64,000 bases of DNA from Candidatus Poribacteria bacterium (GTDB lineage Bacteria > Poribacteria > WGA-4E > WGA-3G): assembly GCA_022827185.1 (NCBI GenBank), contig JAJDTM010000002.1, positions 1,560-65,559 on the forward strand, read 5' to 3'. This document shows positions 38,002 to 63,419 of this stretch, piece after piece. How positions within the stretch are numbered: position 1 is the first letter of the stretch; every line of letters begins with the position of its first letter. The translations under genes were made by a program, and so were the position numbers. The notes beneath the pieces were generated by a model. It saw only the letters and a program-made list of their open reading frames with translations. It was not told the origin of the DNA and made no database searches.

Positions 38002-38003
38002 TA

Positions 38004-38062: not shown

Positions 38063-38067
38063 TACTT

Positions 38068-43064: not shown

Positions 43065-45602
43065 TTGGAAGGACACCTCGTGGAAAAAGAAAATGATGTT
43101 CAACTGATTCAAAGAATATTATCAGGCGATGAAGCAGCGTTTGATGTCTTGGTCCAAAGGCACCAGAAGAGTGTGCACGCCTTGGCGTGGCGGAAGATCG
43201 GCGATTTCCATGATGCTGAGGAGATTACACAGGACACATTCTTTCAGGTATACAAAAAACTCCCGACACTCACGGACCCTTATAAATTCGCTGGATGGCT
43301 GTATGTCATCACAAATCGGCTTTGTATTGATCGGATGCGGCAGAAAAATCTTACGATACAATCGTTGGAGGACACACCTGTGGAAGAAGTTGAAAAATCT
43401 TCTTATACCCATCACGTATCGGAACAACGGCATACAGAAATCACCGAGCGTCGCCGTGCTATCGTCAAAAAACTTCTTGAAAAACTCCCAGAGAGTGAAC
43501 GGACAGTTATGATCCTCCATTATCTCGGCGAAATGACGGTGAAAGAGATTAGCAAGTTCCTGGGTGTCTCTGCAAACGCAATTCATAACCGGTTGTATCG
43601 GGCACGAAAGCGGTTACAAGAGGAAGAAGCATTCCTTATTCAAGAAGTTCTCAGCAGCGTGCAAATACCAACGAGTGTAGGTCAAAACATTATGCAGCGG
43701 GTCGCTGACATAAAACTCACGCCGCAAACAACGCCAAAACCCGTTATTCCGTGGATCGCTTTCGGTACCGCTTTCCTTCTGCTCGCCTTACTCTTTGGCA
43801 CGAGCAATCAATACCTCACCCGTTTTCAGAGACCCTATAGTTTCGAGGCGGCATCTGAACCGACCATTGCTATCATTGACGCACCCGTCGTTCTTGAGAC
43901 AGACGCGAAACCCGCACTGCGAAGTCAAGTTGGACAGGATACCGCCTTAAATCAAAGAACTGGTGCAGGCTTACATGGATCTGAAACTGTCTCAACAACC
44001 GAGTTACCGATGCAGTCAGAAAATATTGAGGCATGGATGCCAGATGAAAATCTACGTCGGGCTATCAAATCTGAACTCAAACTTGGCGATATTCCGCTCG
44101 AGATAGCACATCTCCAGCAGCTCGAACGGTTACTCAGTATTGATGGCGGCATAGAAAGTATTGTGGGTTTAGAACACGCTGTTAATCTTAAATTTCTACA
44201 TCTTGCGCCCAACAAAATCTCGGATCTCACACCACTCGCAAACCTACACAACCTTCGGACACTGAAACTCTATCTCAACAGACTCGTAGACGTTTCACCC
44301 CTTGCGGGATTAGTAGGTTTAGAGACTTTGCATCTACAAAATAACAGGATCGTTGACATCTCACCCCTTGCCGGACTCGTCAACCTAAGGGATTTACAAC
44401 TCAATGGCAATCACATCGAATATTTTTCACCGCTCGCCGGATTAACAAAACTTCAGGTACTTAGGATTAACGACAACAGAGGCATCGATATTTCATCTGT
44501 CCCGACATCCAGTCTGACGGAATTTCTGTATGATCCGACCTTTAATATCCCAGAGATTCCGAACCGTGACCGGATCATGGCTCGCCAGTATCCATCCGTT
44601 TTCGCAGCTTGGCATAACATCATCAATCTACCGACGCTCTCATGGGACGAAAGATTAGTCTATCACGACTTGTGTTTCTCTAATCCTATGTTCGGGCTTC
44701 ATTGGCGGTGGACTCCTACAAGCATGAAAATCTCTGGGAATTTTCGGACAGCAAAGCAACAGCGAGATACGATGCTCAAAGAGAATCCAAATATGATTTT
44801 TCTCGTCGGGATTTATCACTATGGTACACAAGATACATTCGTTCAGCAGGCTGTTGAAGTTGCCAAATGTGGCATCTATGATGGTATCTTTTTAAATTGG
44901 TGGCAAGGCGATAGAGTTGATGCGAAAGTTGCTATACTGCAGAAAATTCGTGAAGTGGTTAGAGATGATTTTCTCATTATCGTCAACGGACTTCGCTCTA
45001 AAACTCCACACTTAGCTCCGTATGTCAACGGCATATTCATGAAAACGAGACGGTACCATCCACAGGGTTACATCCATACCGAACTTCAAGAGATTGAAAG
45101 TGCTTTGCTATGGTCAGAGAAGAATCTTCGATCTCCACAGATTAATTCCTTAGAGGGTTGGGGGCTCGCTGAAGAACCTCTGGATGCCCCACTTAACCAG
45201 CAATGGATGCGGGTCTTTACAACCTTGAGTTTAACGCATTCTGACGGCTATGTTTCGTATGTAACGGGGATTTCATCGTTAACCCACACACATCATTATC
45301 CCATTTGGGAAGGACATTCCGACGAACACGCACAAGGAAAACTACACGATCATACGCATCAGCACTACTGGTATGATTTCTGGGACGCCGATCTCGGTGA
45401 GCCAGTAGGTGGAAAAGGACAGTTCTACCGCGGTTGCGCTGGATTATTCATCCGCGAGTTTACCAACGGATGGGTCGTCTATAACCGCAGTGGAGAAGCA
45501 CAGCAGATCCAGTTGCCGAGGCAAGCCACCAGTGTCGCGAGCGGTATCACCAGCACATCACACACTGTCCCTGATTTAGACGGTGAGATCTTTGTAAAAT
45601 AG
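43065..45602 (+). CDS. Single-chain fusion: ECF sigma factor, one TM helix, LRR region and a roughly 300-aa conserved extracytoplasmic domain (domain X)
   Basis: Sigma-70 region 2 (DAEEITQDTFFQVYKKL) and region 4 (ERTVMILHYLGEMTVKEISKFLGVSANAIHNRLYRARKRL). TM helix VIPWIAFGTAFLLLALLFGT. LRRs of the 22-aa LxxLxLxxNxIxDIxPLAGL type. The C-terminal domain is homologous to those in 46676..47878 and 48186..50744. Likely start is GTG 43080. Confidence 0.75.
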   Translation: MEGHLVEKENDVQLIQRILSGDEAAFDVLVQRHQKSVHALAWRKIGDFHDAEEITQDTFFQVYKKLPTLTDPYKFAGWLYVITNRLCIDRMRQKNLTIQSLEDTPVEEVEKSSYTHHVSEQRHTEITERRRAIVKKLLEKLPESERTVMILHYLGEMTVKEISKFLGVSANAIHNRLYRARKRLQEEEAFLIQEVLSSVQIPTSVGQNIMQRVADIKLTPQTTPKPVIPWIAFGTAFLLLALLFGTSNQYLTRFQRPYSFEAASEPTIAIIDAPVVLETDAKPALRSQVGQDTALNQRTGAGLHGSETVSTTELPMQSENIEAWMPDENLRRAIKSELKLGDIPLEIAHLQQLERLLSIDGGIESIVGLEHAVNLKFLHLAPNKISDLTPLANLHNLRTLKLYLNRLVDVSPLAGLVGLETLHLQNNRIVDISPLAGLVNLRDLQLNGNHIEYFSPLAGLTKLQVLRINDNRGIDISSVPTSSLTEFLYDPTFNIPEIPNRDRIMARQYPSVFAAWHNIINLPTLSWDERLVYHDLCFSNPMFGLHWRWTPTSMKISGNFRTAKQQRDTMLKENPNMIFLVGIYHYGTQDTFVQQAVEVAKCGIYDGIFLNWWQGDRVDAKVAILQKIREVVRDDFLIIVNGLRSKTPHLAPYVNGIFMKTRRYHPQGYIHTELQEIESALLWSEKNLRSPQINSLEGWGLAEEPLDAPLNQQWMRVFTTLSLTHSDGYVSYVTGISSLTHTHHYPIWEGHSDEHAQGKLHDHTHQHYWYDFWDADLGEPVGGKGQFYRGCAGLFIREFTNGWVVYNRSGEAQQIQLPRQATSVASGITSTSHTVPDLDGEIFVK

Positions 45603-45611
45603 GCACATCGC

Positions 45612-45665
45612 CTGCGGATGTCAACGGCGATGGTGTTGATCCGTGACCTCGTCGCCATCGAAAAT
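45612..45665 (+). pseudogene. Frame-shifted dockerin remnant just 3' of the ECF-fusion stop
   Basis: gatgtcaacggcgatggtgtt encodes DVNGDGV, then a frame break, then DLVAIENN. This resembles the [20 protein letters not shown] dockerin repeats of neighbouring genes. Confidence 0.5.
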
Positions 45666-45721
45666 AATTTGGCGGAGAGACAAGCCAATTCTTACTACTT
45701 ATATGGAGAAGAATATGCCTT

Positions 45722-46567
45722 ATGAAAATTAATGGATTCATATCTACAATTATATTGACCGCATTGCTACTGATTGCCACACTCGGAGGCATCACACACG
45801 CCCAAGACGAAGAAGACTGGCTGCCGGATCCGAACCTCCGGCAGGCTATCCGTGAAGCACTCGATATCCCTGATGAGATACCGATACATCCTGGAGACAT
45901 GGAAGGATTACATGGCCTTCGCTTAATAGAAATAGAACACGATATTAGGAGTTTAAGAGGACTTGAGTATGCCGTGAATCTTAAATTCTTGGTTATCGAC
46001 AGAAGTCAACTCTCAAATTTAACGCCACTGGCGGGGCTTAAGAACTTAGAATTTTTGGTTATTGTTAGAAGTGAAATCTCAGATTTAACGCCCCTTACGG
46101 GACTCAAGAATTTACGGGACTTAAAGTTGCGTGAGAATCGCATCACGGATATTACACCCCTTGCAGGATTGGTAAACTTAGAGTTGCTGGTATTGACCCG
46201 GAATCAAATTGTGGATATAACACCGCTCGCAGGATTGATAAACCTACGACGCTTACAATTGAATCATAACCAGGTAGAAGATATTTCACCACTTCGTAGG
46301 TTGGTGAACCTACAACACTTGCAATTGCAACATAACCAGATCGTAGACATTTCACCGCTTCGCGGGTTGTTATCCCTCAAAGTGTTGAACCTCGGAGACA
46401 ATCCTATTACAGACCTTACACCCATTTACGGACTTGTCGGGATAGAAGCATTAGAGATCCAAGAGATACCTATTGACTTTGAAGAACTTCAGATACTGAA
46501 TCCAGTAGACCGTGTTGTTTGCAATATAGAAAGATCCCCCATACTGCCTCGGATTGAAAACATTTAG
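45722..46567 (+). CDS. Secreted LRR protein, the N-terminal part of a gene interrupted by an in-frame TAG
   Basis: Signal peptide. LRRs homologous to the LRR block of the 43065 fusion. The ORF ends at TAG 46565-46567, and the same frame continues into the next ORF. Confidence 0.6.
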   Translation: MKINGFISTIILTALLLIATLGGITHAQDEEDWLPDPNLRQAIREALDIPDEIPIHPGDMEGLHGLRLIEIEHDIRSLRGLEYAVNLKFLVIDRSQLSNLTPLAGLKNLEFLVIVRSEISDLTPLTGLKNLRDLKLRENRITDITPLAGLVNLELLVLTRNQIVDITPLAGLINLRRLQLNHNQVEDISPLRRLVNLQHLQLQHNQIVDISPLRGLLSLKVLNLGDNPITDLTPIYGLVGIEALEIQEIPIDFEELQILNPVDRVVCNIERSPILPRIENI

Positions 46568-46675
46568 TATCCGTCTATTTTTCAAGCGTGTGGGCTTATT
46601 GTCAACCGTCCGGAACTCTCGTGGGTAGAGCAATTAGCATCCCACGATCTGTTTTTCTGCCGTGGGGAGTTCGGA

Positions 46676-47878
46676 GTGGATTGGATTCAAGCACCAGATC
46701 GCCTGGTTCTCACACTCAGTGAGGCCAAAGTGCGCGCAAAAGAAGGACGCGATCGGAATCCAAATATACTTCTCCTTGCCAGCATAGAATTTTATGGGGC
46801 ATCCCCAGAATCGCCTTATGCACTCAGAGATGAATCGGGAAATGTAATAATAGATCACAAATGGGATGGTGCTTTCGCGGACTTCAGGCATCCTGATATT
46901 CAAAAGAGGTTTATAGAGAAGGCACACGCGATTGCGCGATGCGGGCTTTTTGATGGAATCGCCATAGATCATTGGGGGAAACCTGGACTTGGAGATATGA
47001 CCTTAGAAGAAACTGTTGCCGCAAAAGATCGCATGATACAGGCCATTCGTGATGGTGTCGATGATGATTTCTTGATACTGGTAACGACGACGAACGAGAT
47101 TATTCCGACACAGCATCATGCGGAATATATCAATGGCTTTTTCATGGAAACTATTGAAGGTTATGAGGGCGGTTATACCTACGCAGGACTCGCTCACATC
47201 GAAAACACGCTGCTGTGGGCAGAAAAAAACCTCCGAGAGCCTCAAATAAACTGTTTGGCAGGTAGGGGCGTTAGGAGCGAACTGCTGGATAGTCCGAGAA
47301 ATCTACAATGGATGCGTCTATGGACGACAATGAGTCTGACACATTCTGATGGCTATGTCATGTTTACCATGGGTGGCAACCTTGACCATCCCGCCCACCC
47401 TTTTGAATTTTTGCCAGGTCATGCGGATTGGCATGCACAAGGCAAGCGTCACACTCACCAAAACAGCCACTACTGGTATGATTTCTGGGATGCTCCGCTG
47501 GGTCGTCCGATCGGTGGTGATGAAACCAAAGCACAGTTTTATGAGGATCGCGAGGGGTTGTTTATCCGAGAATTTACTAACGGCTGGGCGGTGTATAATC
47601 GCTCCGGCTCCGAACAACAGATTGAGTTTTCGGAAGAAGTCTCCGGCTGGGACAGTGGGGTGGCGCATCAACGCCAGCATACGTTGGCGGATTTGGATGG
47701 CGAGATTTATTTGAAAGCGGAAACCCCTCCCATTGCGGATGTCAATGGTGACGGGACGGTGAATGTCTTGGATCTGGTTATCGTCGCGAATGCGTTTGGG
47801 GAAGCAGCACCGGATTTGAATGGTGACGGGACGGTGAATGTGTTAGACCTTGTGCTGGTGGCGAATGCGTTTGAGTAG
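46676..47878 (+). CDS. Domain X plus a double-repeat type I dockerin (3' part of the split gene)
   Basis: Homologous to the C-terminal domain of the 43065 and 48186 proteins. Ends [46 protein letters not shown]. Confidence 0.6.
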
Positions 47879-48185
47879 GAAACACGCCAAGTTTTTCGCA
47901 GAAATGACCGATTTTCACTGAAAAATGGTGTTCGTGCGTCTAAAATCACATAGGTAGCAAGTTAGGTTATTCTAAAATGTCGAAACACTTGACGAAACTC
48001 AAGAGACTTGAAAAATATCAGCATTAGAATATTCCTTAAATGCTTCTGCTTAACGATTGCAGAAACCTCGCCCTTTAGGGCGGGGTCTATCACGACTTCA
48101 TTATACCAAAAGGGTTCTGTTTATACAAAAAGTTACGCGATTATTTATCAGAGTCACGTTATACAAACGAATGAGGTAAATCCCT

Positions 48186-50744
48186 ATGAAAATCAAGCCC
48201 TCTTTTTACTACAGTTTCCACCTTCTTTTTCTGATTCTCTATCTCAGTCTTACCCCTGTGCACGCCCAAGACTGGCTCCCTGACCCGGTGTTACGGAAAA
48301 CGATTCGGGAATCTCTGGGTCTATCGGCAAACACACCGCTCACAAAAGACTATATGCAACAACTGATACGTCTTGATGGAAATAACAAAGGCATCACGGA
48401 TCTCAGGGGTTTAGAGTTTGCGACGAACCTAAGAATCCTGCACTTGGGAGGTAATGAAAATAATATCACAGATATCAGTCCGCTTGCCAACTTAACAAAT
48501 CTTGTAGGGCTTCATATCTGGCGTGTTCGGCGTCACGACACGCATCGGGCACCCCTCGACATCCGTCCGCTCGCCAACCTCGTTAACTTAGAGGTGCTCT
48601 CTCTGGAGCGACAGGGACTTTCGGATATAAGCGTGCTTGCGAACCTGACAAAGCTTCATAAGTTAGCACTGACGCACAACAACATCTTGGACTTTAGCCC
48701 GTTAGCAGGATTGACGCATCTGCGGATATTGTGGATAAAAAACAACTGGGGGACGGATTTGAGTCCGCTCAAAGGGTTGAATATTACAGATTTTCGCTAT
48801 GACGAAGTGTGTGATTTCACATCACAAGGGGAGTCCGTCACTGCGCGTGTTGAGAACAGGACGTTTCCGTCGATAGTCGGGCTATTCCCGAAAGGGTCAA
48901 TAGAGGAGATGACCCGGTATGATTTCCATTATGGCACCCATTTCGGATTGTGGTGGAAGCGAACGGAAACCGAGCCGACACACGGCTTAGCGATTCGACG
49001 TTCAGGGGATATGGCGCAGGCGAGAGCGTACCGCCAACAGATGCTCCAACAGAATCCAAACATGTTGTTTTTTGTGGGGGTACCTTTGCTTAATTACAAA
49101 CCTTCCAATGCGGCAACGGCTTTTCCCGCAGATTCTGATTTTTGGCTGCGAGATCGCCAAGGGAATATCATCCAAAATGAGAATGATGCGTGGCTGCTGA
49201 ACATTTTGAACCCAGCGTTACAGGATGTTCAGATTGAAAGAATTGTAGGTTTTGCAAAGTGTGGGATTTTCGATGGTGCGCTGTTAGAAGGATTTACAAA
49301 TCATGGAATTGGTGCTGTGGGCAGCCAGTTTTACCCAGTCGTAACAGATGTGCCGTTAACGGAGGAAGCGATTATTGAGGCGTATCTCCGAATTCTAAGC
49401 GAGGTCCGCGCCCGCGTTCCTGAGGACTTTTTGATCGTCGTCAATGCTACGAGAACCAGACCGACCCGTTATGCGGCATACATCAATGGTAATGTGATGG
49501 AACCGGGTTGGGATTATTCCTACAAAGGACTTGCCGAGATTGAAAGCACTTTACTTTGGTCTGAGGAACATTTCCGGGAACCGCAACTGAATTGGGCACA
49601 AGGGTTTCTTATCACCTCGGAGCCCCCGGAGAGTCCTGGGAACCGTCAACGAATGCGTCTCTTTACAACGATGGGACTCACGCACTCTGATGGCTACATA
49701 AACGTCCATTATCATTCAGCGAAGTGGCAGCGATGGGGAGACATCGCTGAAAATTACTGGTATGACTTCTATGATGCCGACCTCGGCAAGCCGATTGGCA
49801 AAACAGCGCAACGCTGCGACGACTGCGACGGGCTCTTCGTGCGTGAGTTCACCAACGGTTGGGCGGTCTACAACCGGAGCGGCAAAGCACAGACGATCCA
49901 CTTACCCGTCAAAGCCACGGGTGTCGCAAGTGGTATCACAAACACCGAACACATCGTTCCAGATTTAGATGGCGAGATGTATCTGAAACAGGCACCGAGT
50001 GTGAATAGCATCGGCATTGTCACTGTGGTTGAGGTTGCGACCGGTGCGCCAGAGGAACCGGAATCCGAATGGATGCCGGATGCCGCCTTACGCGCAGTAG
50101 TTCGGAAGGAAATGGGACTCCCAACACATATCGCTTTGGAAAAATCCCGCATGCCACAGCTGATACATGTTGATGGAAATAACAAAGGCATCACAGACCT
50201 GACGGGTTTGGAGTTTGCGACGAACCTAAGAATCCTGCACGTCGGGGGGAATAAGAATCAGATAACCGACCTTCGCCCGCTTGCGAACTTGACGATCCTT
50301 GAGCATCTCTATATCTGGCGCACACCTCCAAAAGACCCCGCTTCGGTGAGAGTTCTTGACATCCGTCCGCTCGCCAAGCTCACCAACTTACATGCACTCT
50401 CACTGGCGGGAAACGGGATTACCGATATAGCCCTACTGGCGGGCATGAAGAAGCTCGTCAAACTCATCCTTACAGATAATCGGATTGAAGACTTTAGTCC
50501 GCTGGCTGGGCTGATGAGTTTACGAACGTTGAGGATTCGGAACAACCCCGCCACAGATTTCAGCCCACTTGCCGCTTTACCCCTTATTGAATTTCAACTT
50601 GATGCCGATGTCAACGCCGATGGCTTTGTGAATGTGCTTGACCTCGTTACCGTCGCGAATGCGTTTGGGGAAGCGGCACCCGATCTCAACGGTGATGGCA
50701 TCGTCAATATTCAAGATTTAATTATTGTCGCGAATGCGTTTTGA
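48186..50744 (+). CDS. Secreted protein: LRR, domain X, LRR and a C-terminal dockerin
   Basis: Signal peptide LFLILYLSLTPVHAQD. Two LRR blocks. Domain X motifs ([47 protein letters not shown]). Dockerin [45 protein letters not shown]. Confidence 0.75.
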   Translation: MKIKPSFYYSFHLLFLILYLSLTPVHAQDWLPDPVLRKTIRESLGLSANTPLTKDYMQQLIRLDGNNKGITDLRGLEFATNLRILHLGGNENNITDISPLANLTNLVGLHIWRVRRHDTHRAPLDIRPLANLVNLEVLSLERQGLSDISVLANLTKLHKLALTHNNILDFSPLAGLTHLRILWIKNNWGTDLSPLKGLNITDFRYDEVCDFTSQGESVTARVENRTFPSIVGLFPKGSIEEMTRYDFHYGTHFGLWWKRTETEPTHGLAIRRSGDMAQARAYRQQMLQQNPNMLFFVGVPLLNYKPSNAATAFPADSDFWLRDRQGNIIQNENDAWLLNILNPALQDVQIERIVGFAKCGIFDGALLEGFTNHGIGAVGSQFYPVVTDVPLTEEAIIEAYLRILSEVRARVPEDFLIVVNATRTRPTRYAAYINGNVMEPGWDYSYKGLAEIESTLLWSEEHFREPQLNWAQGFLITSEPPESPGNRQRMRLFTTMGLTHSDGYINVHYHSAKWQRWGDIAENYWYDFYDADLGKPIGKTAQRCDDCDGLFVREFTNGWAVYNRSGKAQTIHLPVKATGVASGITNTEHIVPDLDGEMYLKQAPSVNSIGIVTVVEVATGAPEEPESEWMPDAALRAVVRKEMGLPTHIALEKSRMPQLIHVDGNNKGITDLTGLEFATNLRILHVGGNKNQITDLRPLANLTILEHLYIWRTPPKDPASVRVLDIRPLAKLTNLHALSLAGNGITDIALLAGMKKLVKLILTDNRIEDFSPLAGLMSLRTLRIRNNPATDFSPLAALPLIEFQLDADVNADGFVNVLDLVTVANAFGEAAPDLNGDGIVNIQDLIIVANAF

Positions 50745-50965: not shown

Positions 50966-53080
50966 ATGCAACTAACTAAGAAACAAAACATTTTTATTTA
51001 CTTACTCATCTTTTGTGCGACACTATTCTTCGTATTTCCACTGATAACAAGTGCACAAACTGTTAACATTCCTGACGCGAATCTTCGCGAAGCAATCAAT
51101 GAGGCACTCGGTAAAGCATCAAATGCCCAGGTTACATTGAAGGAAATAGTGACGTTAACCCGCCTTACTGCGAATAACAGAGGTATCAGCGATTTAACAG
51201 GACTTGAAGTTGCGACAGGATTGGAGAGCGTAGAACTCCAGCATAATCAAATATCCGACTTATCCCCGCTCGCGGGGTTGATGAAACTGCGTGTTATACG
51301 GATGGGCAATAACCTTATATTTGATTTATCCCCGGTCGCAGGTTTAATCAACTTGGCAAGATTAGATATCTGGGAGAATTTGATTTCCGATTTGTCCCCG
51401 GTCGCAGGTTTAACCAACTTACTATCAATAAGTTTCGGGAGTAATTCGGTATTTGACTTATCACCCTTGGCGGGGTTAAGGAAGCTTGAGAGGATAAATA
51501 TGAGCCAAAACCCGCCAGCAGACCTCTCGCCCCTTTCAAAAATAATTGGTTTGACAGGTTTTCATTCTTGGGGCACCCCTATATTAGACCTCGCGCCTTT
51601 GGCGGAATTACCAAAACTCAGCGTCATAGATATCTGCGGGGGCGAGATATCGGACCTCTCCGCTTTAGCGAACGCGACAGGTTTGAAGGAACTGTATTTT
51701 GCTGGCAATCAGATCACGGACGTATCGCCGTTGGTGGGCTTAACAAATTTGACGAGACTGAATTTTGCAGAAAATGAAATATCGGACGTGTCACCACTTG
51801 CTGGATTAACCAACTTGACATGGATACGGATTAACCACAATCCAATATCCGATCTATCGCCTTTAGAAGGGTTAGGTATACCTATTGTTCACCATAATAC
51901 CCCGGCATTTCCACCGGGCGGTCCGAAAATCGAAGGACCATGGTTATGGGTACTTGTACCGGGGGAGCGTATTGGTGGTGGAGATTTGCTGGCAGAAGCG
52001 ACGGGTGGCACAGCGACAGAGGAGAAGGTTGCTACTGTTGGTGCTGCAGAGGGAAAGTCTGTTGGAGACAATGTTTGGGTAGCCGATAACATTACCGCGG
52101 TGGGACGCAATAACATCGGTGAAATGCTGAAACGCCAAGGCGTGGGAAACGACGGAGTCGTCTACGGTTCCACCACCTTGGAGTCACCACGAGAACAGGA
52201 AACAAAAATGTTCGTCGGCGCGCATGATGGTGTTGAAGTCTGGCTCAACGGGGCACTCATTCACCAGAAATCTGGTGGACATTGGGCGGAGGGTTACCAC
52301 ACCTTTTTTCCCGTTACGCTCAACGAAGGAACAAATGTGTTGTTAGTTGCTCTTGACAACCACCACGTTGATCAGTGGCGGGCATTTTTTGGATTTGACG
52401 TTGACACAGAATATACGGTAAATTCTCCGATTTCCCGAGCTCCATCTGAAATACCTGCTTATGATGTCAATGAGGATGGGCAAATCAGTATTCTGGATCT
52501 GATTCTGGTAGGTCAAGACTTGGGAAAAGCAAAGCCCACCAACGCGCGAACAGATGTGAATGGCGATGGAACTGTTAGTATCTCGGACCTCGTCCTTGTG
52601 GCACAACATCTCGGCGAAATAACAGGAATTCCTGCCTCGCCTTCCCCCTACACCTTACGCAGCATGGGGTTAGACGCGGCAACAGTCCACACGTGGATAG
52701 CACTTGCCGAGATAGAAAATGATGGCTCGCTCGTCTTCAAGCAAGCGATAGCGAATCTTCAACGGCTTTTAGCGTTGTTGATGCCCGAAAGGACAGCATT
52801 GCTTGTGAACTATCCGAATCCGTTTAACCCAGAGACATGGATACCCTACCAACTTGCTGAACCTGCCAAGGTCACTATACACATTTATGCGATGAGCGGT
52901 GCTTTGGTCCGGAAGTTAGATTTAGGACATCAGGCTGCTGGTATCTATAGTGAAAAGAACCGTGCAGCGTATTGGGATGGTCGCAACCAACTTGGAGAAC
53001 CTGTAGCGAGTGGTGTGTATTTCTACACGTTCACTACTGGCGACTTTACGGCGACGCGAAAAATGGTGATAAGGAAGTAG
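50966..53080 (+). CDS. Secreted protein: LRR, a roughly 180-aa unknown domain (domain Y), a dockerin and a T9SS-type C-terminal sorting domain
   Basis: Signal peptide. About 12 LRRs. Domain Y (GPWLWVLVPG...KSVGDNVW...SPREQETKMF). Dockerin DVNEDGQISILDL...[41 protein letters not shown]...VYFYTFTTGDFTATRKMVIRK. Confidence 0.75.
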   Translation: MQLTKKQNIFIYLLIFCATLFFVFPLITSAQTVNIPDANLREAINEALGKASNAQVTLKEIVTLTRLTANNRGISDLTGLEVATGLESVELQHNQISDLSPLAGLMKLRVIRMGNNLIFDLSPVAGLINLARLDIWENLISDLSPVAGLTNLLSISFGSNSVFDLSPLAGLRKLERINMSQNPPADLSPLSKIIGLTGFHSWGTPILDLAPLAELPKLSVIDICGGEISDLSALANATGLKELYFAGNQITDVSPLVGLTNLTRLNFAENEISDVSPLAGLTNLTWIRINHNPISDLSPLEGLGIPIVHHNTPAFPPGGPKIEGPWLWVLVPGERIGGGDLLAEATGGTATEEKVATVGAAEGKSVGDNVWVADNITAVGRNNIGEMLKRQGVGNDGVVYGSTTLESPREQETKMFVGAHDGVEVWLNGALIHQKSGGHWAEGYHTFFPVTLNEGTNVLLVALDNHHVDQWRAFFGFDVDTEYTVNSPISRAPSEIPAYDVNEDGQISILDLILVGQDLGKAKPTNARTDVNGDGTVSISDLVLVAQHLGEITGIPASPSPYTLRSMGLDAATVHTWIALAEIENDGSLVFKQAIANLQRLLALLMPERTALLVNYPNPFNPETWIPYQLAEPAKVTIHIYAMSGALVRKLDLGHQAAGIYSEKNRAAYWDGRNQLGEPVASGVYFYTFTTGDFTATRKMVIRK

Positions 53081-53117
53081 GTTGTCGCACTTTCAACCGA
53101 TAGTTAGGAGATTAACC

Positions 53118-56100
53118 ATGAGAATTAGTAAATACCTTTATCTGACAGTATTAATATTTATCGTATTAGGATTTGGAACCGCATCTGCGCAGCAGGATCT
53201 CGCGCAAGAGGCATACACTATCCTTCAAAAGAATTGTTCGCTATGTCATGGAGAACACGGCTCCTTTACCGAGGATTTGGTGCTTGAATACACATCACTC
53301 ATCGGGAATGGGGTTATTGTCCCTGGAAATCCTAATGCTTCGGAGTTCTATAAACGATTAATTGAGAATACACCCGAAAAACCGCGAATGCCGTGGGGAC
53401 AGCCTGCGTTGTCAGCGGATGCGCTTGAGACGATTCGTCAGTGGATTGCAGCGGGTGCACCGAATTGGGAGGTGCAATATGATGTCAACTTCATTACGAT
53501 GGATGCGATGCTTTCGGTGATTGAAGATCACGTCGCGTCGCTTTCGGCATTTGATCGTCCGTCCGCTCGCTACTTCACGCTGACGCATCTCTATAACGCT
53601 GGTGGAAGTCCTGAGGCACTTGATGCCTATCGGCGTGCACTCTCGAAGTTGGTGAATAGTCTCTCCTGGGGGTTTGAAGTGATCAAGCCAGAACCGATTG
53701 ACGAACAAGAGATGATCTTTTATATTGATTTGCGCCACTATGAGTGGGATAGAAACGAAGCGTGGACGCAGATTGAACGGGAATATCCCTACAGCATTGA
53801 ATTTGATTCGGAGACACAAGCGGGTCTGCACGAAAAACTGACGAATTTACGTACAGAAATGGACTGCGAAGTGCCGTTTGTCTATGTGGATTGGTTCCTT
53901 GCTAATGCGTCGTTACCACCGCTGTACCACGATATTCTGGACCTGCCAGAAACGGATCAGGAATTAGAGGAGCAACTGGGAGTCAATGTGACGCGAAATA
54001 TCAACAATGCTCCCGGGGTTCACGTCTGGCGTGCGGGTTTCCTCAAGTCGGGTGTGTCAGGGTACAACCGTGTTGTGGAACGGCACACCTCCGACTATGG
54101 TGCGTATTGGAAAAGCTACGACTTTGCGGGGGATTCGGACGTTCAGAATATTTTTATACATCCGCTGACTTTTAGACACGACGGTGGGGAGGTCGTGTTC
54201 CATCTGCCGAACGGTTTGCAAGGGTATTATATCTCTGATGCGTCTGGGAATCGGATAAATGAGGCACCAACGACGATCGTATCCAACCCAGCGGCAAGCA
54301 ATCCTGCCGTGCGCAATGGTCTCTCTTGTATCGGTTGCCACACAGAAGGCATGAAAACGTTTGAAGATGAGGTGCGTGCGGAGATTATGCTGCGGTTCCC
54401 TGAGGGACCGGTGAAGGATCAGGGATTGCGTCTGTATGTGGAACAATCAAAGATGGATGCGCTTGTGGCGAGGGACACAGCTCGTTACAGGGGAGCACTT
54501 GAAAAGACGGGTGGTGTGTTTGGTGGTACGGTTGAACCGGTACATCGGTTCTATGAGGAGTTTCAACGTCCTGTTGAGGCTGCACACGCTGCGGCTGCTG
54601 TCGGTTTAGAGACAGAGATGTTCCGTCAAGAGATTCGAGATAAACAGCGTTTACGGGACTTAGGTTTGGCGGGGCTATTGGAGGATAGGGGTGTGAGTCG
54701 GGATACATGGACCTCCAACTTTCCCGAAGTGATTTCGGCGCTGCATTCTCCCGACGATACAACAACACAGCCGGTCGATCCAGAAACTGACCTACGTCCT
54801 GGTGATTTAGTCTCTATTCCTGATCCGAACCTTCGTGCTGTGATAGAAAGGTTGCTCGACAAAGCCCCAGGTGCTTTGATTACGGCGGCGGATATGGCAA
54901 GGTTGACGCGGATTGTTGCCGATGATGCTGGGATTAGTAATTTGACGGGACTTGAGGCGGCAACGCAGTTGGAACGCATAGAATTTCGTCGGAATTCGAT
55001 ATCCGATTTATCTCCACTGAGAGGCTTAATCCGACTCAATAACATCAAGCTCCGGGGGAATCGGATAACCGATGTATCACCGCTTGCTGACTTAGTTCGT
55101 GTGGATTGGTTAGGACTTGAGGATAACGAGATAACAGATTTATCTCCGCTGAAGGGATTAACCAGATTAAACGGGATAGGGATTTCAGGCAACCCAATAT
55201 CCGATGTATCACCGCTTGCAAACTTGACCAGTTTAGAAGGCATCAACGCTTGGCGCACACCTATCTCGGATTTCTCATCCTTGGCAAAATTAACGAGATT
55301 CAGGTGGATAGGATTTGGTGATGATAAGTCGATATCAGCACTTCCATCACTGAAGGGATTGAAAAGTTTGAGACGGTTGGAAATTAACAACTGTAGCATC
55401 TCGGATCTCTCCGGATTGGCGGAATTGACACAGTTGGAATGGTTAGGATTGAATAATAACCAGATATCGGATATATCTCCATTGCGAAATTTAAGGGGTT
55501 TAGAACATCTGAATCTTAATGCTAACATTATCGAAGATGTATCGCCGCTTGCGAAGTTAACAAAGTTAAAACTTCTACATCTTGTGAACAACATTATCTC
55601 GGATGTATCGCCGCTTGCAGGATTAACTAACTTGGAACGGTTAGACCTCCGCAACAATGCGATATCTGACTTTTCACCTTTGGAAGGATTATTGGAGGAG
55701 ACATTTGTCAGAATAGAAGGTAACACGGGTGTTCTCCGGCGAGGAGCTCCAAAGATACAAGGGCCATGGTTGTGGGTGCTCGTGCCTGTGCCCGGGTCTG
55801 ATGCCTTCCGTAACATAGATTTGCTTGCACGAGCAAGTAATGGAGATATAACCGAGCGGGAGATCGCTACAAACGGTGCGACAGAAGGGAAGTCTGTCGG
55901 TGATAACGTCTGGTTTTCCGAGAAAATATCTACGGATAGGAACAACATCAGAACCATGCTGGGTGCCCTCGGTATGTTAGAAGAGGGCAGTCGCTCGAAT
56001 CTCGTCTACGGTTCGCTCACCCTTGATTCACCACGAGAACAACAGACAAAGATGTTTGCTGGGAGCGATGATCTGCATAAAGTCTGGTTCAATGGACAGT

Positions 56101-57755
56101 TGGTTAGCGAAGCTGTCCACGGAGGGACAAGTGGTGATTACCAGGAATCTTTCCGTGTTACGTTGAAGCAAGGAAAAAATGTGTTATTAGTTGCAATATA
56201 TGATTATGGGGGTGGATGGGGAGGACATTTTGGGTTTGCGCCTGATGCTGAATATACGGTCTTATCCCCTGACACCAGATTCTCCTTTTCCACAGCGGCG
56301 ACGCGAATTAAAGTTGGCGATAGGTTCACTGTTCAGTTCAAAACAAAAAACATTTCCGACTTAGCGGGATGGCGATCTGATATTACATTTGATCCCGCAG
56401 TGCTAAAAGTCAATAACGTCCGCGAGGGTAGTTTCCTGAAACAAGGTGGTGGACGCACCCACTTCTTGAAAGGCACGATTGATAATACGATGGGTAGAAT
56501 CGCCGATGTCGGTTCTGCACGGATCTCTGAAGGTGGAGTTAGCGGTGAAGGTGCCCTGTTGTCAATTACATTCACGGCAAAGGTGAATGGTGAGAGCCGA
56601 TTGTCACTACGAAAATTTCAAGCTGGTTCCAGTACGGGTGATGCAATTTCTGATCGACCCCCTGATATGATTATTACTGTCGAGGATCCGTCGTCCTTAG
56701 ATGTAAGTGATGGCCCATTTTCCCTTTCTACGGATGTAACACCTGTTCGCCTTGGTAATACCTTTAACCTTCTTCTCAAAGCGGAAGATGTTACGGATTT
56801 AGCGGGATGGCAGACTGATATTGCGTTTGACCCCGATGTGCTTGAAACCGTTGAGGTGAACGAAGGCGATTTTCTGAAGGCGGAAGGCGGGGATACCTTC
56901 TTTTTTCAAGGCGCGATTGATAACACGGCAGGTAAAATTACAGGTCTCAGCGCAGCGAAGTTGAAGGGCGGTGGTAACGGCGCAGGTATGCTACTATTGG
57001 TTACATTCAAGGCGAAGGCTGTCGGGGAAACACGGGTGACACTTAGCAATTTCTTTGCTGGCTCCAGCAGCGGCGAAACTATCTCTTCAGAAGTTCCCGA
57101 AATTAGGATCACTATTGAGGATCGCGCGTTTTCTGCTTCGGATGTCAATCAGGACGGTCGAGTGAACGTTCAGGATCTAATCGTGGTTGCACAACATTTA
57201 GGTGCTGATGCGTCTGTCAACCGCCGAGCGGATGTCAATGGCGATGGAACTATTAACGTTTTGGACATCATCGTTATCGCACAAAATTTAGGTGAATCAA
57301 CAGCGGCTGCGCCTTCCAATGTTGCTGCTATAGACAGTTTAGAATTATATCCAGCAATGGTTCAGGCATGGATAGCGGAGGCAGAGGCTAAGAATGACGA
57401 TTCGATTGCCTTCCGACAGGGTATCGAAAACCTTCAACGACTTTTAGCGTCGCTGCTTCCTGAAAAGACAGTGTTGCTGCCGAACTATCCGAACCCGTTC
57501 AATCCCGAAACATGGATACCCTATCATCTTGCTGAAGCTGCGGATGTGACAGTGCATATCTATGCTACCGATGGGGTCTCGGTTCGGACGTTGGCGTTAG
57601 GGCATCAGGCTGCTGGCACCTATGAGCGTCGTAGCCGTGCGGTGTATTGGGACGGCAAAAACGAGGTCGGTGAGCCTGTCGCGAGTGGTGTCTATTTTTA
57701 TACCCTAACGGCAGGTGATTTCACTGCTACGCGGAAACTGTTGATACGGAAATAG
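53118..57755 (+). CDS. Giant secreted scaffold-like protein: PSCyt1-like CxxCH domain, a second CxxCH, LRR, domain Y, two cohesin-like modules, a dockerin and a T9SS-type CTD
   Basis: ATG 53118 with aggag RBS and signal peptide. CSLCH at about 53235 followed by ...PRMPWGQPALSADALETIRQWIAAGAP, the PSCyt1 pattern. CIGCH at about 54325. LRRs 54820-55700. Domain Y 55740-56280. Cohesin-like beta-sandwich modules at about 56290-56690 and 56700-57120 (DLAGW..DI.FDP.VL). Dockerin at 57130-57300. CTD at 57480-57755. The track ORF starts at TTG 53082, one base after the previous stop. Confidence 0.75.
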   Translation: MRISKYLYLTVLIFIVLGFGTASAQQDLAQEAYTILQKNCSLCHGEHGSFTEDLVLEYTSLIGNGVIVPGNPNASEFYKRLIENTPEKPRMPWGQPALSADALETIRQWIAAGAPNWEVQYDVNFITMDAMLSVIEDHVASLSAFDRPSARYFTLTHLYNAGGSPEALDAYRRALSKLVNSLSWGFEVIKPEPIDEQEMIFYIDLRHYEWDRNEAWTQIEREYPYSIEFDSETQAGLHEKLTNLRTEMDCEVPFVYVDWFLANASLPPLYHDILDLPETDQELEEQLGVNVTRNINNAPGVHVWRAGFLKSGVSGYNRVVERHTSDYGAYWKSYDFAGDSDVQNIFIHPLTFRHDGGEVVFHLPNGLQGYYISDASGNRINEAPTTIVSNPAASNPAVRNGLSCIGCHTEGMKTFEDEVRAEIMLRFPEGPVKDQGLRLYVEQSKMDALVARDTARYRGALEKTGGVFGGTVEPVHRFYEEFQRPVEAAHAAAAVGLETEMFRQEIRDKQRLRDLGLAGLLEDRGVSRDTWTSNFPEVISALHSPDDTTTQPVDPETDLRPGDLVSIPDPNLRAVIERLLDKAPGALITAADMARLTRIVADDAGISNLTGLEAATQLERIEFRRNSISDLSPLRGLIRLNNIKLRGNRITDVSPLADLVRVDWLGLEDNEITDLSPLKGLTRLNGIGISGNPISDVSPLANLTSLEGINAWRTPISDFSSLAKLTRFRWIGFGDDKSISALPSLKGLKSLRRLEINNCSISDLSGLAELTQLEWLGLNNNQISDISPLRNLRGLEHLNLNANIIEDVSPLAKLTKLKLLHLVNNIISDVSPLAGLTNLERLDLRNNAISDFSPLEGLLEETFVRIEGNTGVLRRGAPKIQGPWLWVLVPVPGSDAFRNIDLLARASNGDITEREIATNGATEGKSVGDNVWFSEKISTDRNNIRTMLGALGMLEEGSRSNLVYGSLTLDSPREQQTKMFAGSDDLHKVWFNGQLVSEAVHGGTSGDYQESFRVTLKQGKNVLLVAIYDYGGGWGGHFGFAPDAEYTVLSPDTRFSFSTAATRIKVGDRFTVQFKTKNISDLAGWRSDITFDPAVLKVNNVREGSFLKQGGGRTHFLKGTIDNTMGRIADVGSARISEGGVSGEGALLSITFTAKVNGESRLSLRKFQAGSSTGDAISDRPPDMIITVEDPSSLDVSDGPFSLSTDVTPVRLGNTFNLLLKAEDVTDLAGWQTDIAFDPDVLETVEVNEGDFLKAEGGDTFFFQGAIDNTAGKITGLSAAKLKGGGNGAGMLLLVTFKAKAVGETRVTLSNFFAGSSSGETISSEVPEIRITIEDRAFSASDVNQDGRVNVQDLIVVAQHLGADASVNRRADVNGDGTINVLDIIVIAQNLGESTAAAPSNVAAIDSLELYPAMVQAWIAEAEAKNDDSIAFRQGIENLQRLLASLLPEKTVLLPNYPNPFNPETWIPYHLAEAADVTVHIYATDGVSVRTLALGHQAAGTYERRSRAVYWDGKNEVGEPVASGVYFYTLTAGDFTATRKLLIRK

Positions 57756-57871: not shown

Positions 57872-57894
57872 GGCTTCGTACCGCAAAGACCACA

Positions 57895-57960: not shown

Positions 57961-58316
57961 CTTCATTATATACAAATTTCATCTCCGATCTTTCCCGTCG
58001 TCAATATTTTGGATCTTATCCTCATTTCATCTTTACCTCGTCCTCATCTCATTCTCATTACTCAACATTTAAGCGGATAAAAATAAAAACGTCTGTAGCG
58101 TTGTGTGCTAACACTTCCAGACTTTATATAATCTGCGGTTTATCAGGTCCCTGAAACCCGACCTGCCTTCGGGATAACTGTTAAAAAAATAGAAATTTTC
58201 ATTTTTTTTCAGATTATGCACGTTTTCCGTTCCCAAATTACGTCTTTAGAAATCAAGCGGTAAAAAAATCATTTTGTTTAACAATTTTCGTTTAATATCT
58301 GAAGGGAGAAAAAAAG

Positions 58317-58880
58317 ATGTCAAAAACTTTTAGTTCGGAAACTTTCAAAAAAACATTCGATGCCTATATCCTAAGGTGGCATATATCGGAAGCCGTCTTA
58401 TTGATTTTGGCTTTCTTACCTTTCTTGGCGTACGGCATAGCGTACTATTTGGATCTTTCATGGATACCTATCTTGGGTGACATAACTTTTGGGGCAATTT
58501 CATCTGGTATTGTTTCTTTTGGAGCCATCTCTTTTGGATTTGTTTCGATTGGGGCCATATCTTTCGGTGTCATAGCTATTGGCAGTTCGTCTTGCGGGAT
58601 CATAGCAATCGGCGCAATATCCGCGGGGGTTTTTGCTTTTGGAAATGCCTCCGCTGTTGGACTTATCGCTATTTCTACAGGTTCAACTGGGATAACTCCC
58701 CGGGTCGGTGGCACTGCTGTTGGCGTTATAGCGATCGGTCAGCATGCAAGCGGCGTATACGCGCTCTCCTATGAAAGAAAAGACAATAGCGTTTATCAGT
58801 TTTCACCGGAACGCCAAGATATAGAGGCTGTCACACTCTTTACCCGCTGTCTCCGAAAGTTTAAGAAAGCGTATGCATAA
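58317..58880 (+). CDS. Small membrane protein with tandem glycine-zipper repeats (GAISxG x about 10)
   Basis: GAISSGIVSFGAISFGFVSIGAISFGVIAIGSSSCGIIAIGAISAGVFAFG. The DNA is periodic over 58490-58650. Confidence 0.5.
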   Translation: MSKTFSSETFKKTFDAYILRWHISEAVLLILAFLPFLAYGIAYYLDLSWIPILGDITFGAISSGIVSFGAISFGFVSIGAISFGVIAIGSSSCGIIAIGAISAGVFAFGNASAVGLIAISTGSTGITPRVGGTAVGVIAIGQHASGVYALSYERKDNSVYQFSPERQDIEAVTLFTRCLRKFKKAYA

Positions 58881-59090
58881 CCGTCTTAAACTGACGTGCG
58901 GAACGATTGAAGGATGGAATTTCGGAAGTTTTAGCAGTTTATCAAGAAACAAATCCTTTATAGTGGATTTCCTAATTCCTATACATCTTCCGAACTCCGA
59001 AACCCTTATGGCACAGGAAACCAACGGTTTCCTATACTACATGTGTAAACTTATTTTCGGATTTTGCTATAATGTCTGAAGACCTAATAT

Positions 59091-61160
59091 TTGGAGGTAA
59101 AAAAGATGATCAGCAGAATTAAACGCGCCGTGGTTGTATTACTTATCCTTAGCAATTTCTCTCTGGCGTTCGCTGCACCGCCTAAAGTGACACGTTTTAC
59201 ACTCAGTAATGGTATCCGTGTTGTCAGTCTCTACGTTGAGGCATCCACGGATGTCATTATCCTCAGTTATTTGCCCCTCGGACTTGTCACTGATGGGAAA
59301 ACAAAGGCACAATGGAGCCATCTGATTGAACACTTGACACTCCGAACGACGGGACCGATTAATTACCCTTCAAGTAGTGCAGAAACGATGGCTGATAACA
59401 TGCGCTTGGAATCTATCGGGAACACCGATAACTGGACGCAGGGTTTGGAACGCCACGCAAAGTGGCTTTCGGGGTTACCGTTTTCAGAGGAGAGTTTAGC
59501 CGAGGAGTTACCGAACGCTTTGTCCGAGATTGACTTTACTGAAACGAGATTGGCGACCCACAAATGGGCATCCGCTGCATGGAACCAAGTTTTTCGACAC
59601 GGTGAAACGGATATATCCATGCGGGGTGATGTTCAATCCGCACAGTTAGGTGAATTACAAGAATACCGAGATCGGCATTTAGTCCAAGCAGATCGGGTGC
59701 TTTTGTGTGTCATCGGTGGAGTTGACTCGGAAACACTGCAGCCCGTAATGGAAACGCAACTCGGAACTATCAACCTAACAGCAAAGACGCTGCCACCAGC
59801 AACAGTAACATCGGGGGTGGTGAAAGACCGAACTGCCGCTTGGGATATCAATGTAACCCACTACATAGAAACTTACGCGATACCCCACTCGGAAGATGAA
59901 GATTATCCGGCGTTGTATATAACGAACGCGCTCCTGAACTTAGGACTCATGCAGGATACCCAACTGAAGGAATTAACGGGTTTTGTGCTCTGCAGTGTTG
60001 ATCTCGTTACACCTGAACAGACCTATCTACAGATCAGTGCTTCACTCAAGCCAGATACAGATATAGAAGTGGTTAAGCAGCGCATTAAACAGTTGATAAA
60101 CCGGCTCAAGCAGCCAGAGAACAACGCGCAGGTCGCTATGGCTGCCCCGTCACTTTCCAGGCAATTCAGTTCACCACTGGATATAGAGATGATGAAGCAA
60201 CAAAAACCGGCAGGTGTGTCAGAAACCATGATGCTTGGTAACATCGGTCTATGGTGGGGGATGCTGGAATATCAATATGGTGAGATTTTACCGCAGCTCG
60301 CGGGGGCATTTGCCAAGGTCTCTGCGGCTGATGTTGCCGATGTTGTCAATCGGTATTTAACCGAAGATGCGCGGATGACGTTAGTTCTCACACCACATGA
60401 TGCGTTTCTTGATGAATTCGGCGCGGTTAACGAAATTGAGATAAAGCAACCCGAACCGCCGCCTGCGGAGCCGATGCCGGAAGCGAGTGAAGCAGACATG
60501 ACGAGAGCCAAAGAAATCCTCGCTGCAGCAGTTGACGCACACGGTGGACTTGAGAAACTGCAAGCAGTCAAGAACATCGTCATGGAGGGGCACGCAACAG
60601 CCAATTCACCCACAGGACCGCAAATAGAAGGCACATCATACTACGTCCACCCTGACAAATTTAGACAAGATTTGAAGATGCCGCAAGGTGAAACGGCTTA
60701 CGTCTTTGATGGCACTTCTGGATTCGTGTTGACACCCATGGGGGTTCAACCAATACCACCACAGATGGCTGCCACTTTTAAAGATGCGGTTTTCCGAGAG
60801 CCGTTGTGGCTACTGACGAACCTCTCACAAAACGACATCCCGATCCAGTATGCTGGCACAGAAGACCTACAAGGTAAACCTACGTCTATTCTGCTGCTTC
60901 CGCAGCCATCTGGCGAGATGATGAAACTCTTTGTGAGCGAGGATACGCATTATATTGTGAAAATTGCCTATCCTGATTCCTCTCAAGGTATTACTGTTAA
61001 TCGGGAAACGCTCTTGAGTGATTACCGCGATGTTGATGGCGTTAAAGTCGCGTATCATGTTGTGCAGAACATAGAGGGGCAGCTCTTTAGCGAAAGCCGG
61101 ATAACACGTATTGCGTTGAACGCTGAACTTGAGGAATCGCTATTTCAGGAACCGAAGTGA
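59091..61160 (+). CDS. Secreted M16 (pitrilysin/insulinase) family peptidase-like protein with an intact HxxEH motif
   Basis: Signal peptide. TRFTLSNGIRVV M16 N-terminal signature. HLIEH inverted zinc-binding motif at about nt 59323. Two-domain length (689 aa). Confidence 0.65.
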   Translation: MEVKKMISRIKRAVVVLLILSNFSLAFAAPPKVTRFTLSNGIRVVSLYVEASTDVIILSYLPLGLVTDGKTKAQWSHLIEHLTLRTTGPINYPSSSAETMADNMRLESIGNTDNWTQGLERHAKWLSGLPFSEESLAEELPNALSEIDFTETRLATHKWASAAWNQVFRHGETDISMRGDVQSAQLGELQEYRDRHLVQADRVLLCVIGGVDSETLQPVMETQLGTINLTAKTLPPATVTSGVVKDRTAAWDINVTHYIETYAIPHSEDEDYPALYITNALLNLGLMQDTQLKELTGFVLCSVDLVTPEQTYLQISASLKPDTDIEVVKQRIKQLINRLKQPENNAQVAMAAPSLSRQFSSPLDIEMMKQQKPAGVSETMMLGNIGLWWGMLEYQYGEILPQLAGAFAKVSAADVADVVNRYLTEDARMTLVLTPHDAFLDEFGAVNEIEIKQPEPPPAEPMPEASEADMTRAKEILAAAVDAHGGLEKLQAVKNIVMEGHATANSPTGPQIEGTSYYVHPDKFRQDLKMPQGETAYVFDGTSGFVLTPMGVQPIPPQMAATFKDAVFREPLWLLTNLSQNDIPIQYAGTEDLQGKPTSILLLPQPSGEMMKLFVSEDTHYIVKIAYPDSSQGITVNRETLLSDYRDVDGVKVAYHVVQNIEGQLFSESRITRIALNAELEESLFQEPK

Positions 61161-61226
61161 ATCGGAATGATATGAAGTATTAGCAGGAATTCAGTCGTTT
61201 GTGTTGATGCATTATGGAGAGTTCTG

Positions 61227-63419: not shown

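Follow-up and report, generated by a model that had tools for sequence, protein, structure and literature searches.

Membrane-tethered ECF sigma factors of Poribacteria with sensor domains that often resemble a secreted protein encoded next door

The window analysed here is a stretch of 64,000 nucleotides (nt) of contig JAJDTM010000002.1 from a Candidatus Poribacteria bacterium (assembly GCA_022827185.1), a member of a group of abundant, uncultivated sponge symbionts. Between 42.9 and 63.4 kb it carries ten genes, all on the + strand, two of which encode single-chain fusions of an extracytoplasmic function (ECF) sigma factor with a transmembrane (TM) helix and a sensor domain, hereafter sigma fusions 1 and 2 (Table 1). 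A first-pass annotation, made from the letters alone, had described them as such, and profile searches and hydropathy agree: Pfam finds Sigma70_r2 and Sigma70_r4_2 and no other sigma domains in either protein, both pass the TIGR02937 sigma70-ECF model (99.7 and 106.3 bits; cutoff 42.9), which places them among the ECF (group 4) sigma-70 factors, and each contains a single strongly hydrophobic 19-mer (residues 227-245 in fusion 1, 222-240 in fusion 2) directly followed by the stalk sequence QYLxRFQRPYSFEAxSEPTI. The NCBIfam equivalog models for sigma factors (SigW, SigM, RpoE and others) all scored well below their own cutoffs for both fusions. Over about 290-313 residues the N-terminal modules share 58-60% identity, less than the roughly 70% first proposed, and the similarity ends near residue 320, beyond which the extracytoplasmic parts have no significant match to each other, as the annotation had stated.

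The two proteins share a fixed order of parts. An ECF sigma factor in the cytoplasm is linked by some 38 amino acids (aa), a moderately conserved tether with a predicted helix, to one TM helix with nearly invariant Pro and Gly residues; outside follow a stalk of about 45 aa, a short spacer of low complexity and the ectodomain, which varies. Across 93 sequences the mean frequency of the most common residue is 0.81 in sigma region 2, 0.84 in region 4 and 0.77 in the stalk, and 0.44 past about residue 285; this drop marks the boundary of the common cassette. AlphaFold2 modelled regions 2 and 4 of the 296-aa N-terminal module with a pLDDT (predicted local distance difference test) of about 80, from an alignment of 24 sequences.

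A search with residues 1-296 of fusion 2 gave more than 1870 protein matches, the best 120 of which are 63-97% identical over the whole module including helix and stalk, and every source name given among the matches was Candidatus Poribacteria. A scan of one genome per species confirmed at least 576 genomic copies. With tether, helix and stalk as the query, 249 matches were found among 1.84 billion representative proteins, all members with a name or a traceable contig being Poribacteria, and in nearly all full-length proteins found the match lies at residues 185-295. The 79 related loci compared below come from sponge-derived Poribacteria, save one titled just 'uncultured bacterium', and include many closed long-read chromosomes; one of them, locus L001, is 97% identical to the window. 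Complete family genes in these loci mostly encode 570-1030 aa, and many family entries in the databases stop shortly past the stalk. At least 15 kinds of ectodomain are attached to the cassette: M16-like domains, leucine-rich repeats (LRR) with or without a GHL15-like domain, Kelch, WD40, BNR/sortilin-like and Reg_prop propellers, Laminin_G_3, trypsin with TPR, redoxin, transglutaminase, CarboxypepD_reg and Ig-like domains, and several without a Pfam match. WD40 propellers occur in 16 of 58 diverse family members; the window fusions bear an LRR/GHL15-like and an M16-like ectodomain instead. The modular construction first suggested is thus borne out by many unrelated ectodomains on one cassette, and its collapse of conservation near residue 285. 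A literature search combining Poribacteria and ECF sigma factors found no paper, and the family, seen only in Poribacteria, is apparently undescribed.

Sensor 2, the ectodomain of fusion 2, shares 72% protein identity over 417 aa with the N-terminal 440 aa of the secreted M16-like peptidase encoded immediately upstream (59091..61160) and does not have the C-terminal 250 aa of that protein. Here the claim of close paralogy between sensors and neighbours stands. The accompanying claim of more than 85% nucleotide identity in parts of this pair applies to one stretch of about 100 nt only (62214-62313, 86%); overall the identity is 73.8%, no 150-nt window exceeds 82%, and the longest exact match is a single run of 32 nt. 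For the window pair the synonymous divergence (dS) is about 1.25 and saturated, and the ratio of nonsynonymous to synonymous divergence (dN/dS) is 0.14. When 16 sensors and 14 neighbours were placed in one tree, each set grouped as a clade of its own, and identity between species is similar in the two groups (70.4% for sensors vs 71.5% for neighbours), with 55-79% identity remaining between M16 sensor and neighbour. Because the clades are separate and dS is about 1.25, the duplication is ancient, and the M16 pair is an old arrangement under purifying selection rather than a recent capture. Recent capture and gene conversion were both considered for sensor 2 and its neighbour and were ruled out on these grounds together with the lone 32-nt run. 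There is a mild excess of identity between sensor and own neighbour in locus L011 and in the window, which could reflect small conversion tracts but is not compelling.

The active-site motif HxxEH divides the pair in the same way. It is intact as HLIEH in all 14 neighbours, and its catalytic Glu is lost in all 16 sensors, several of which also do not have a His (HLINH in the window; elsewhere HLINY, HLVNH, NLIMR, NLIMH, SLIMH, QLINH and QLVNR). The fold is kept, since Peptidase_M16_C is matched by both the neighbour (33.9 bits; cutoff 23) and sensor 2 (30.1 bits). PDB sequence searches with the M16-like domains found one distant structure only (5euf, 'Protease'; E 5e-11 with the family profile). 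Because the Glu is absent from every sensor and present in every neighbour, sensor 2 is predicted to be a catalytically dead pseudo-peptidase beside a paralogue with an intact motif. The additional C-terminal part of the window neighbour (about 250 aa, 60411-61160) has a weak LolA_like match below cutoff (E 1e-3), and the M16 neighbours in most other species consist of just about 440 aa. In locus L007 (OZ242029.1, 10001-17299) an M16-type and an LRR/GHL15-type sigma fusion are directly adjacent, with no M16 neighbour; the distance between the two types in the window is about 16 kb.

Sensor 1, which consists of LRR and a GHL15-like domain, is much further from its neighbours than had been proposed: it is 42% identical to 45722..47878 and 37% identical to 48186..50744, and over all comparisons the range is 37-45%, so that these are paralogues but not close ones. 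Both neighbours have a signal peptide and a dockerin; sensor 1 has no dockerin. In a neighbour-joining tree of GHL15-like domains, sensors and neighbours are mixed at great depth, which shows an old paralogy, not the number of events. The first neighbour is not an intact gene: a TAG codon at 46565-46567, aligned with a Gln in sensor 1, cuts its one reading frame into two open reading frames (ORFs), through a CAG>TAG nonsense mutation or else an error in the consensus.

The resemblance between sensor and adjacent gene extends to other genomes. In the 79 related loci, with all sigma fusion genes masked, we sought a paralogue of each of 97 ectodomains within 10 kb, and 33 sensors had such a non-sigma paralogue. 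When ectodomains were paired with loci of other sensor classes, the background rate was 192 of 4757 pairings, or 4%. The resemblance is therefore beyond chance. It recurs in seven ectodomain classes, namely M16 (13 of 15), Kelch (8 of 12), LRR (6 of 10) and four singleton classes. Many of the loci are orthologous, so that the count corresponds to about seven independent events, not 33.

The second feature common to the family is a 54-nt motif, found by k-mer enrichment upstream of family genes in other genomes and then scanned as a position weight matrix (PWM). It consists of a T-tract, ATTATGCAC, a TTTTC-like element and (C/T)GTCTTTAAT; CGTC-type -10 elements are typical of ECF promoters. The window has only two strong matches, one per sigma operon and each of 51 bits. 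In 1.41 Mb of related loci 130 matches reached at least 25 bits, where about 0.1 would be expected by chance (our own estimate from the score threshold); almost all lie on the strand of the sigma gene, and 100 of them have a sigma fusion on their own strand at most 4 kb downstream. Of 15 M16-class loci, 14 have the motif 0.8-2.7 kb before the sigma gene, and the first ORF after the motif is the M16 neighbour in 10 loci and a small Gly-rich ORF in 4. Over all matches the first ORF is a sigma fusion in 40 cases; the others most often encode secreted M16, Kelch, WD40, LamG-like or trypsin-like proteins, a TolB-like propeller or an ABC-2-like permease. The M16, Kelch, WD40, LamG-like and trypsin-like classes are also those of the sensors, so that regulon and sensor classes overlap. 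Between sensor classes the motif differs at a few positions, with variants in the base that follows TGCAC and in the C or T that precedes GTC.

Loci L052, L054, L057 and L067 contain arrays of four to seven motifs, each before a secreted LamG-like, Kelch or TolB-like protein or an ABC-2-like permease, which suggests large regulon islands. A weak copy in the window (9716-9769, 12.6 bits) lies about 60 nt 5' of ORF 9827..10663 (278 aa), for which Pfam gave no significant match. Scans of 42.5-62.4 kb for sigma-70-type promoters and for terminators gave no excess over shuffled sequence.

Table 1. Features of the two sigma fusion operons in the window (positions count from the first letter of the stretch)
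Feature	Position	Strand	Evidence and remarks
ECF-like promoter motif 1	42921..42974	+	T-tract, ATGATGTGAG, then CGTCTTTAAT; about 90 nt 5' of sigma fusion 1; PWM 51 bits
Sigma fusion 1, 845 aa	43065..45602	+	Pfam, NCBIfam, hydropathy, start-site context, motif coordinates, tblastn against paralogues
Sigma fusion 1, cytoplasmic parts and TM helix	region 2 43149-43349; region 4 43461-43616; TM helix 43743-43799	+	
Sigma fusion 1, outer parts	stalk 43800-43937; LRR domain from 44034; GHL15-like domain 44589-45599	+	
Secreted LRR, GHL15-like and dockerin paralogue of sensor 1	45722..47878	+	42% identity; in-frame TAG 46565-46567
Secreted LRR, GHL15-like, LRR and dockerin paralogue of sensor 1	48186..50744	+	37% identity
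Secreted LRR and dockerin protein with C-terminal sorting domain of the type IX secretion system (T9SS)	50966..53080	+	Pfam; TIGR04183 35.7 bits (cutoff 23)
Candidate surface scaffold, 1557 aa	53082..57755	+	PSCyt1-like N-terminus, LRRs, two cohesins, dockerin, T9SS sorting domain
ECF-like promoter motif 2	58202..58255	+	Head of the operon ending in sigma fusion 2; PWM 51 bits
Glycine-rich membrane protein, 187 aa, first gene of the sigma fusion 2 operon	58317..58880	+	GAISxG-like repeats
Secreted M16-like peptidase	59091..61160	+	HxxEH intact = HLIEH at 59319-59333; weakly LolA-like C-terminal extension
Sigma fusion 2, 730 aa	61227..63419	+	Pfam, NCBIfam, hydropathy, motif coordinates
Sigma fusion 2, cytoplasmic parts and TM helix	region 2 61293-61493; region 4 61602-61760; TM helix 61890-61946	+	
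Sigma fusion 2, outer parts	stalk 61947-62081; pseudo-M16 ectodomain 62196-63416; HLINH at 62328-62342	+	

Fusion 1 probably starts at the GTG at 43080 and not at the TTG at 43065: a ribosome-binding-like site, GGAAGGA, lies 6 nt 5' of that GTG, and translation from there gives the N-terminus MEKENDVQLI, in line with the family. Downstream of it, cohesin and dockerin modules are found by Pfam on separate secreted proteins, Dockerin_1 in four of them and Cohesin twice in 53082..57755, as in a candidate assembly. The last-named protein is an unusual combination, PSCyt1 being a Planctomycete-type cytochrome c-like N-terminus, and its TIGR04183 match (27.1 bits; cutoff 23) indicates the type A C-terminal sorting domain of T9SS cargo. 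Neither before 50966..53080 nor in the further intergenic gaps downstream of sigma fusion 1 did we find the family motif or a terminator pattern on the + strand. Control of the dockerin, cohesin and T9SS genes by sigma fusion 1 is plausible because one motif precedes five co-directional genes and the gaps between them have no further motif or terminator pattern of this kind; 50966..53080 may be co-transcribed with sigma fusion 1. The first-pass annotation would have placed a dockerin/cohesin/T9SS assembly under sensors built from its own components; what speaks for this is the shared orientation and the single motif upstream of sigma fusion 1. In the operon of sigma fusion 2 the Gly-rich ORF, which has no Pfam match, is kept at the same position in loci L001, L002, L005 and L007. 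The flanks (6061-8769 and 36361-42590) are devoted to ordinary carbohydrate metabolism (an altronate/galactarate dehydratase-like protein, a glycogen-branching/amylase-like protein, a thiamine pyrophosphate enzyme and three xylose-isomerase-like TIM barrels), and no candidate for a protease or an anti-sigma factor was found in them near the fusions.

On balance we consider it probable, if by a narrow measure, that the fusions are self-regulated, membrane-tethered sigma factors, most likely freed by proteolysis, with sensors drawn from the very families they control. The sigma factor would be kept inactive at the membrane until the ectodomain binds a ligand, upon which cleavage in the common stalk, followed by intramembrane cleavage of the helix, would release it. 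Once free, it would transcribe from the bipartite promoter of the family (ATGCAC ... (C/T)GTCTTTAA), and a copy of this promoter before its own operon would result in positive autoregulation, the same operon also yielding secreted proteins of the fold of the sensor. The output of sigma fusion 2 would then be a predicted active M16 peptidase, and that of sigma fusion 1 the LRR/GHL15-like dockerin proteins and possibly, by read-through, the cohesin/T9SS scaffold. Most likely the dead M16 sensor would bind the same ligand or substrate as the induced enzyme without destroying it, so that a pseudo-enzyme receptor, to judge from its sequence an ancient duplicate kept under purifying selection, would couple the availability of a substrate to the making of the matching secreted protein. 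The case for release by regulated intramembrane proteolysis is circumstantial and draws on analogy with IutY, RsiW/SigW and RsgI/SigI, on the single TM helix with its conserved Pro and Gly and on the conserved stalk. Since the stalk is conserved nearly like the sigma domains across unrelated sensors, it fits a common processing or docking partner better than a conformational coupling specific to each sensor.

Several observations weigh against this proposal. No anti-sigma domain is detectable by Pfam between region 4 and the TM helix, so that 'sigma and anti-sigma in one', as the proteins had first been called, goes beyond what is found; a search of Pfam with tether, helix and stalk gave zero matches even at E <= 1, and the tether has no match to zf-HC2 or a related domain and no Cys/His cluster. 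Neither stalk contains an Asn-Pro autocleavage motif, and about 45 aa look too short for a folded periplasmic domain of the RsgI type. In the AlphaFold2 model residues 183-296 have a pLDDT below 50, and it says nothing on a tether folding back onto the sigma domains. A promoter nearly identical across paralogues implies either cross-talk or specificity determinants, and co-transcription of sigma fusion 1 with the dockerin and cohesin genes is read from their orientation and the absence of terminator and promoter patterns. Lastly, in the largest ectodomain class, the BNR-like propellers, a paralogous non-sigma neighbour is present in 2 of 53 cases; the other 51 mean that a sensor mirroring its cargo is not universal. 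The idea that secreted duplicates were captured as sensors is therefore kept in part: the excess of paralogous neighbours, which are often co-directional, speaks for it, but in the M16 class the event is not recent and the largest class shows almost no such neighbours.

Other readings of the same architecture deserve weighing. One takes the sensor to detect the paralogous neighbour itself, so that the sigma factor reports the amount of its partner or the partner cuts the stalk. M16 peptidases commonly act as pairs of homologous halves, an active and a dead M16 protein stand side by side, apparently in one operon, in 13 of 15 species, each corresponds in size to one M16 subunit (about 415-440 aa), and at their level of identity interfaces could be retained. 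Against this, the idea is hard to extend to sensors of the LRR, Kelch or WD40 kind or to the class that has no such neighbours, and loci L007 and L008 have the sensor without a neighbour within 10 kb; we regard it as unlikely, if worth keeping in mind for the M16 pair. We think it quite unlikely that the sigma factor is active without leaving the membrane, in the manner of ToxR or CadC, with the ligand altering its oligomeric state or conformation and no proteolysis involved. Such a mode would suit the missing anti-sigma domain, the want of a recognisable cleavage motif and a moderately conserved tether with a predicted helix; however, to our knowledge no sigma factor has been shown to function membrane-bound, the conservation of the stalk across unrelated sensors fits a common processing or docking partner better, and IutY, the characterised single-chain case, needs regulated intramembrane proteolysis (PMC8999054).

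The fusions might also be by-products of low function, arisen by 'fortuitous insertion / gene sequestration', their likeness to neighbours being a matter of local tandem duplication. A model of this kind has been published for Planctomycetes ECF factors with mutually unrelated C-terminal extensions (PMC7671368), and both the many family entries ending shortly past the stalk and the premature stop in one window paralogue would suit it. We hold it to be very improbable, because orthologous fusions of about 730 aa are kept in 16 Poribacteria genomes with conserved synteny, dN/dS is low while dS is saturated, the fusion point always lies past the same stalk and is not random, and the loss of the catalytic site is specific and consistent. 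That the sigma-sensor junctions are assembly chimeras, a question made reasonable by the origin of the window in a metagenome-assembled genome, found no support and can be practically dismissed: the same junction residue recurs in independent assemblies from many samples, including closed long-read chromosomes (OZ and OY accessions), the stalk occupies residues 185-295 in nearly all full-length members of 249 representative clusters, and orthologues of about 730 aa are present in 15 other Poribacteria genomes, again including closed long-read chromosomes.

If release of membrane-tethered sigma factors is the correct reading, the conserved stalk points to processing that is common to the family, and the cassette could serve as a modular scaffold for biosensors. 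In any case the family supplies parts that can be tested, namely a compact transmembrane sensor encoded by one gene, a defined promoter of 54 nt and natural pairs of active and dead enzymes, and dozens of paralogous sigma factors with nearly one promoter raise the question of cross-talk versus insulation. A wider interpretation, which we offer tentatively and as rather less than an even prospect, would see in the family an expansion specific to the phylum, in which a fixed cassette of promoter, sigma factor, tether, TM helix and cleavable stalk was combined with more than 15 ectodomains from promoter-driven families, including catalytically dead copies of the co-transcribed enzyme, so that each eukaryote-like secreted family (LRR, WD40, Kelch, M16 and others) would be served by a pseudo-cargo receptor of its own under a common or near-common promoter type. 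Were this true, a sponge symbiont would be reading the matrix of its host in a manner not recognised before. The interest of these results lies mainly with specialists in sigma factors and sponge symbiosis.

The first-pass annotation did not recognise the architecture as a described ECF group, yet its type is known from ECF57/ECF01-Gob, IutY and ECF48/52/53. In Planctomycetes, the ECF57/ECF01-Gob proteins are ECF sigma factors with WD40-like C-terminal extensions (PMC8999054, PMC4937300, PMC8567305). As far as those accounts describe them, they resemble the Poribacteria family in joining an ECF core to large repeat-rich C-terminal domains and in having many young paralogues within a lineage, and their descriptions set them apart from its invariant tether-TM-stalk cassette, its at least 15 ectodomain types and its occurrence, as far as seen, only in Poribacteria. 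Two cysteines that link sigma 2 and sigma 4 are described for ECF57 (PMC8999054); in our family alignments only C81 in region 2 is near-invariant and none is conserved in region 4. In the actinobacterial ECF48/52/53 groups (e.g., SCO4117), an ECF sigma factor is likewise joined to TM helices and, outside the cytoplasm, a carbohydrate-binding domain, and proteolytic activation is predicted (PMC8999054; PMC5826349); going by the published group descriptions, they differ in their zinc-finger (ZAS-type) anti-sigma domain and proline-rich region, both absent here. Pseudomonas putida has IutY (ECF243), a hybrid of sigma and anti-sigma factor in one chain, which is released through regulated proteolysis by Prc and RseP and is constitutively active when truncated (PMC8999054); ECF sigma factor, TM helix and outer domain in one chain are common to both, whereas the FecR-type anti-sigma region and TonB-dependent receptor of IutY were not detected in our case.

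Among systems with separate partners, the sigma core is nearest to SigW of Bacillus subtilis, which is both its closest solved structure (PDB 5wuq, E 5e-26) and its best NCBIfam match (PRK09641, 109-118 bits, far below the equivalog cutoff of 209 bits). SigW differs in having a separate anti-sigma factor, RsiW, from which it is freed by regulated intramembrane proteolysis. The best functional analogue of the assembly control first proposed is RsgI/SigI, which governs the cohesin/dockerin assembly of the Clostridium thermocellum cellulosome and is activated by site-1-like cleavage, then RseP, then ClpXP (PMC10328401). In its RsgI paralogues, too, the N-terminal part, TM helix and juxtamembrane domain are conserved and the C-terminal sensors vary, the latter binding polysaccharide substrates; unlike the fusions, the system has separate sigma and anti-sigma factors, a non-ECF SigI and Asn-Pro cleavage in a folded periplasmic domain.

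For the mode of evolution, the closest precedent is that of Pinto and da Fonseca 2020 (PMC7671368), in which Planctomycetes sigma factors were duplicated and then gained unrelated C-terminal extensions ('gene sequestration'). As there, unrelated C-terminal parts with non-sigma homologues in the lineage are joined to one conserved sigma 2-sigma 4 core. In Poribacteria, by contrast, the duplicated unit reaches through the TM helix and the stalk, the promoter motif recurs with the unit, the donor-like gene stands intact next door in the same operon, and the fusions are old and under purifying selection, not fortuitous. The model of sigma duplication plus new extension is thereby extended to a second phylum, and clear selection on the fusions and a rule for the origin of the sensors are added to it. 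The general design is thus not new, as there are published precedents for the architecture and for the evolutionary mode. What appears to be new is the Poribacteria family itself, a cassette that extends through helix and stalk, its common promoter, the repeated occurrence of a paralogous secreted protein as operon partner, and a dead enzyme in the role of sensor.

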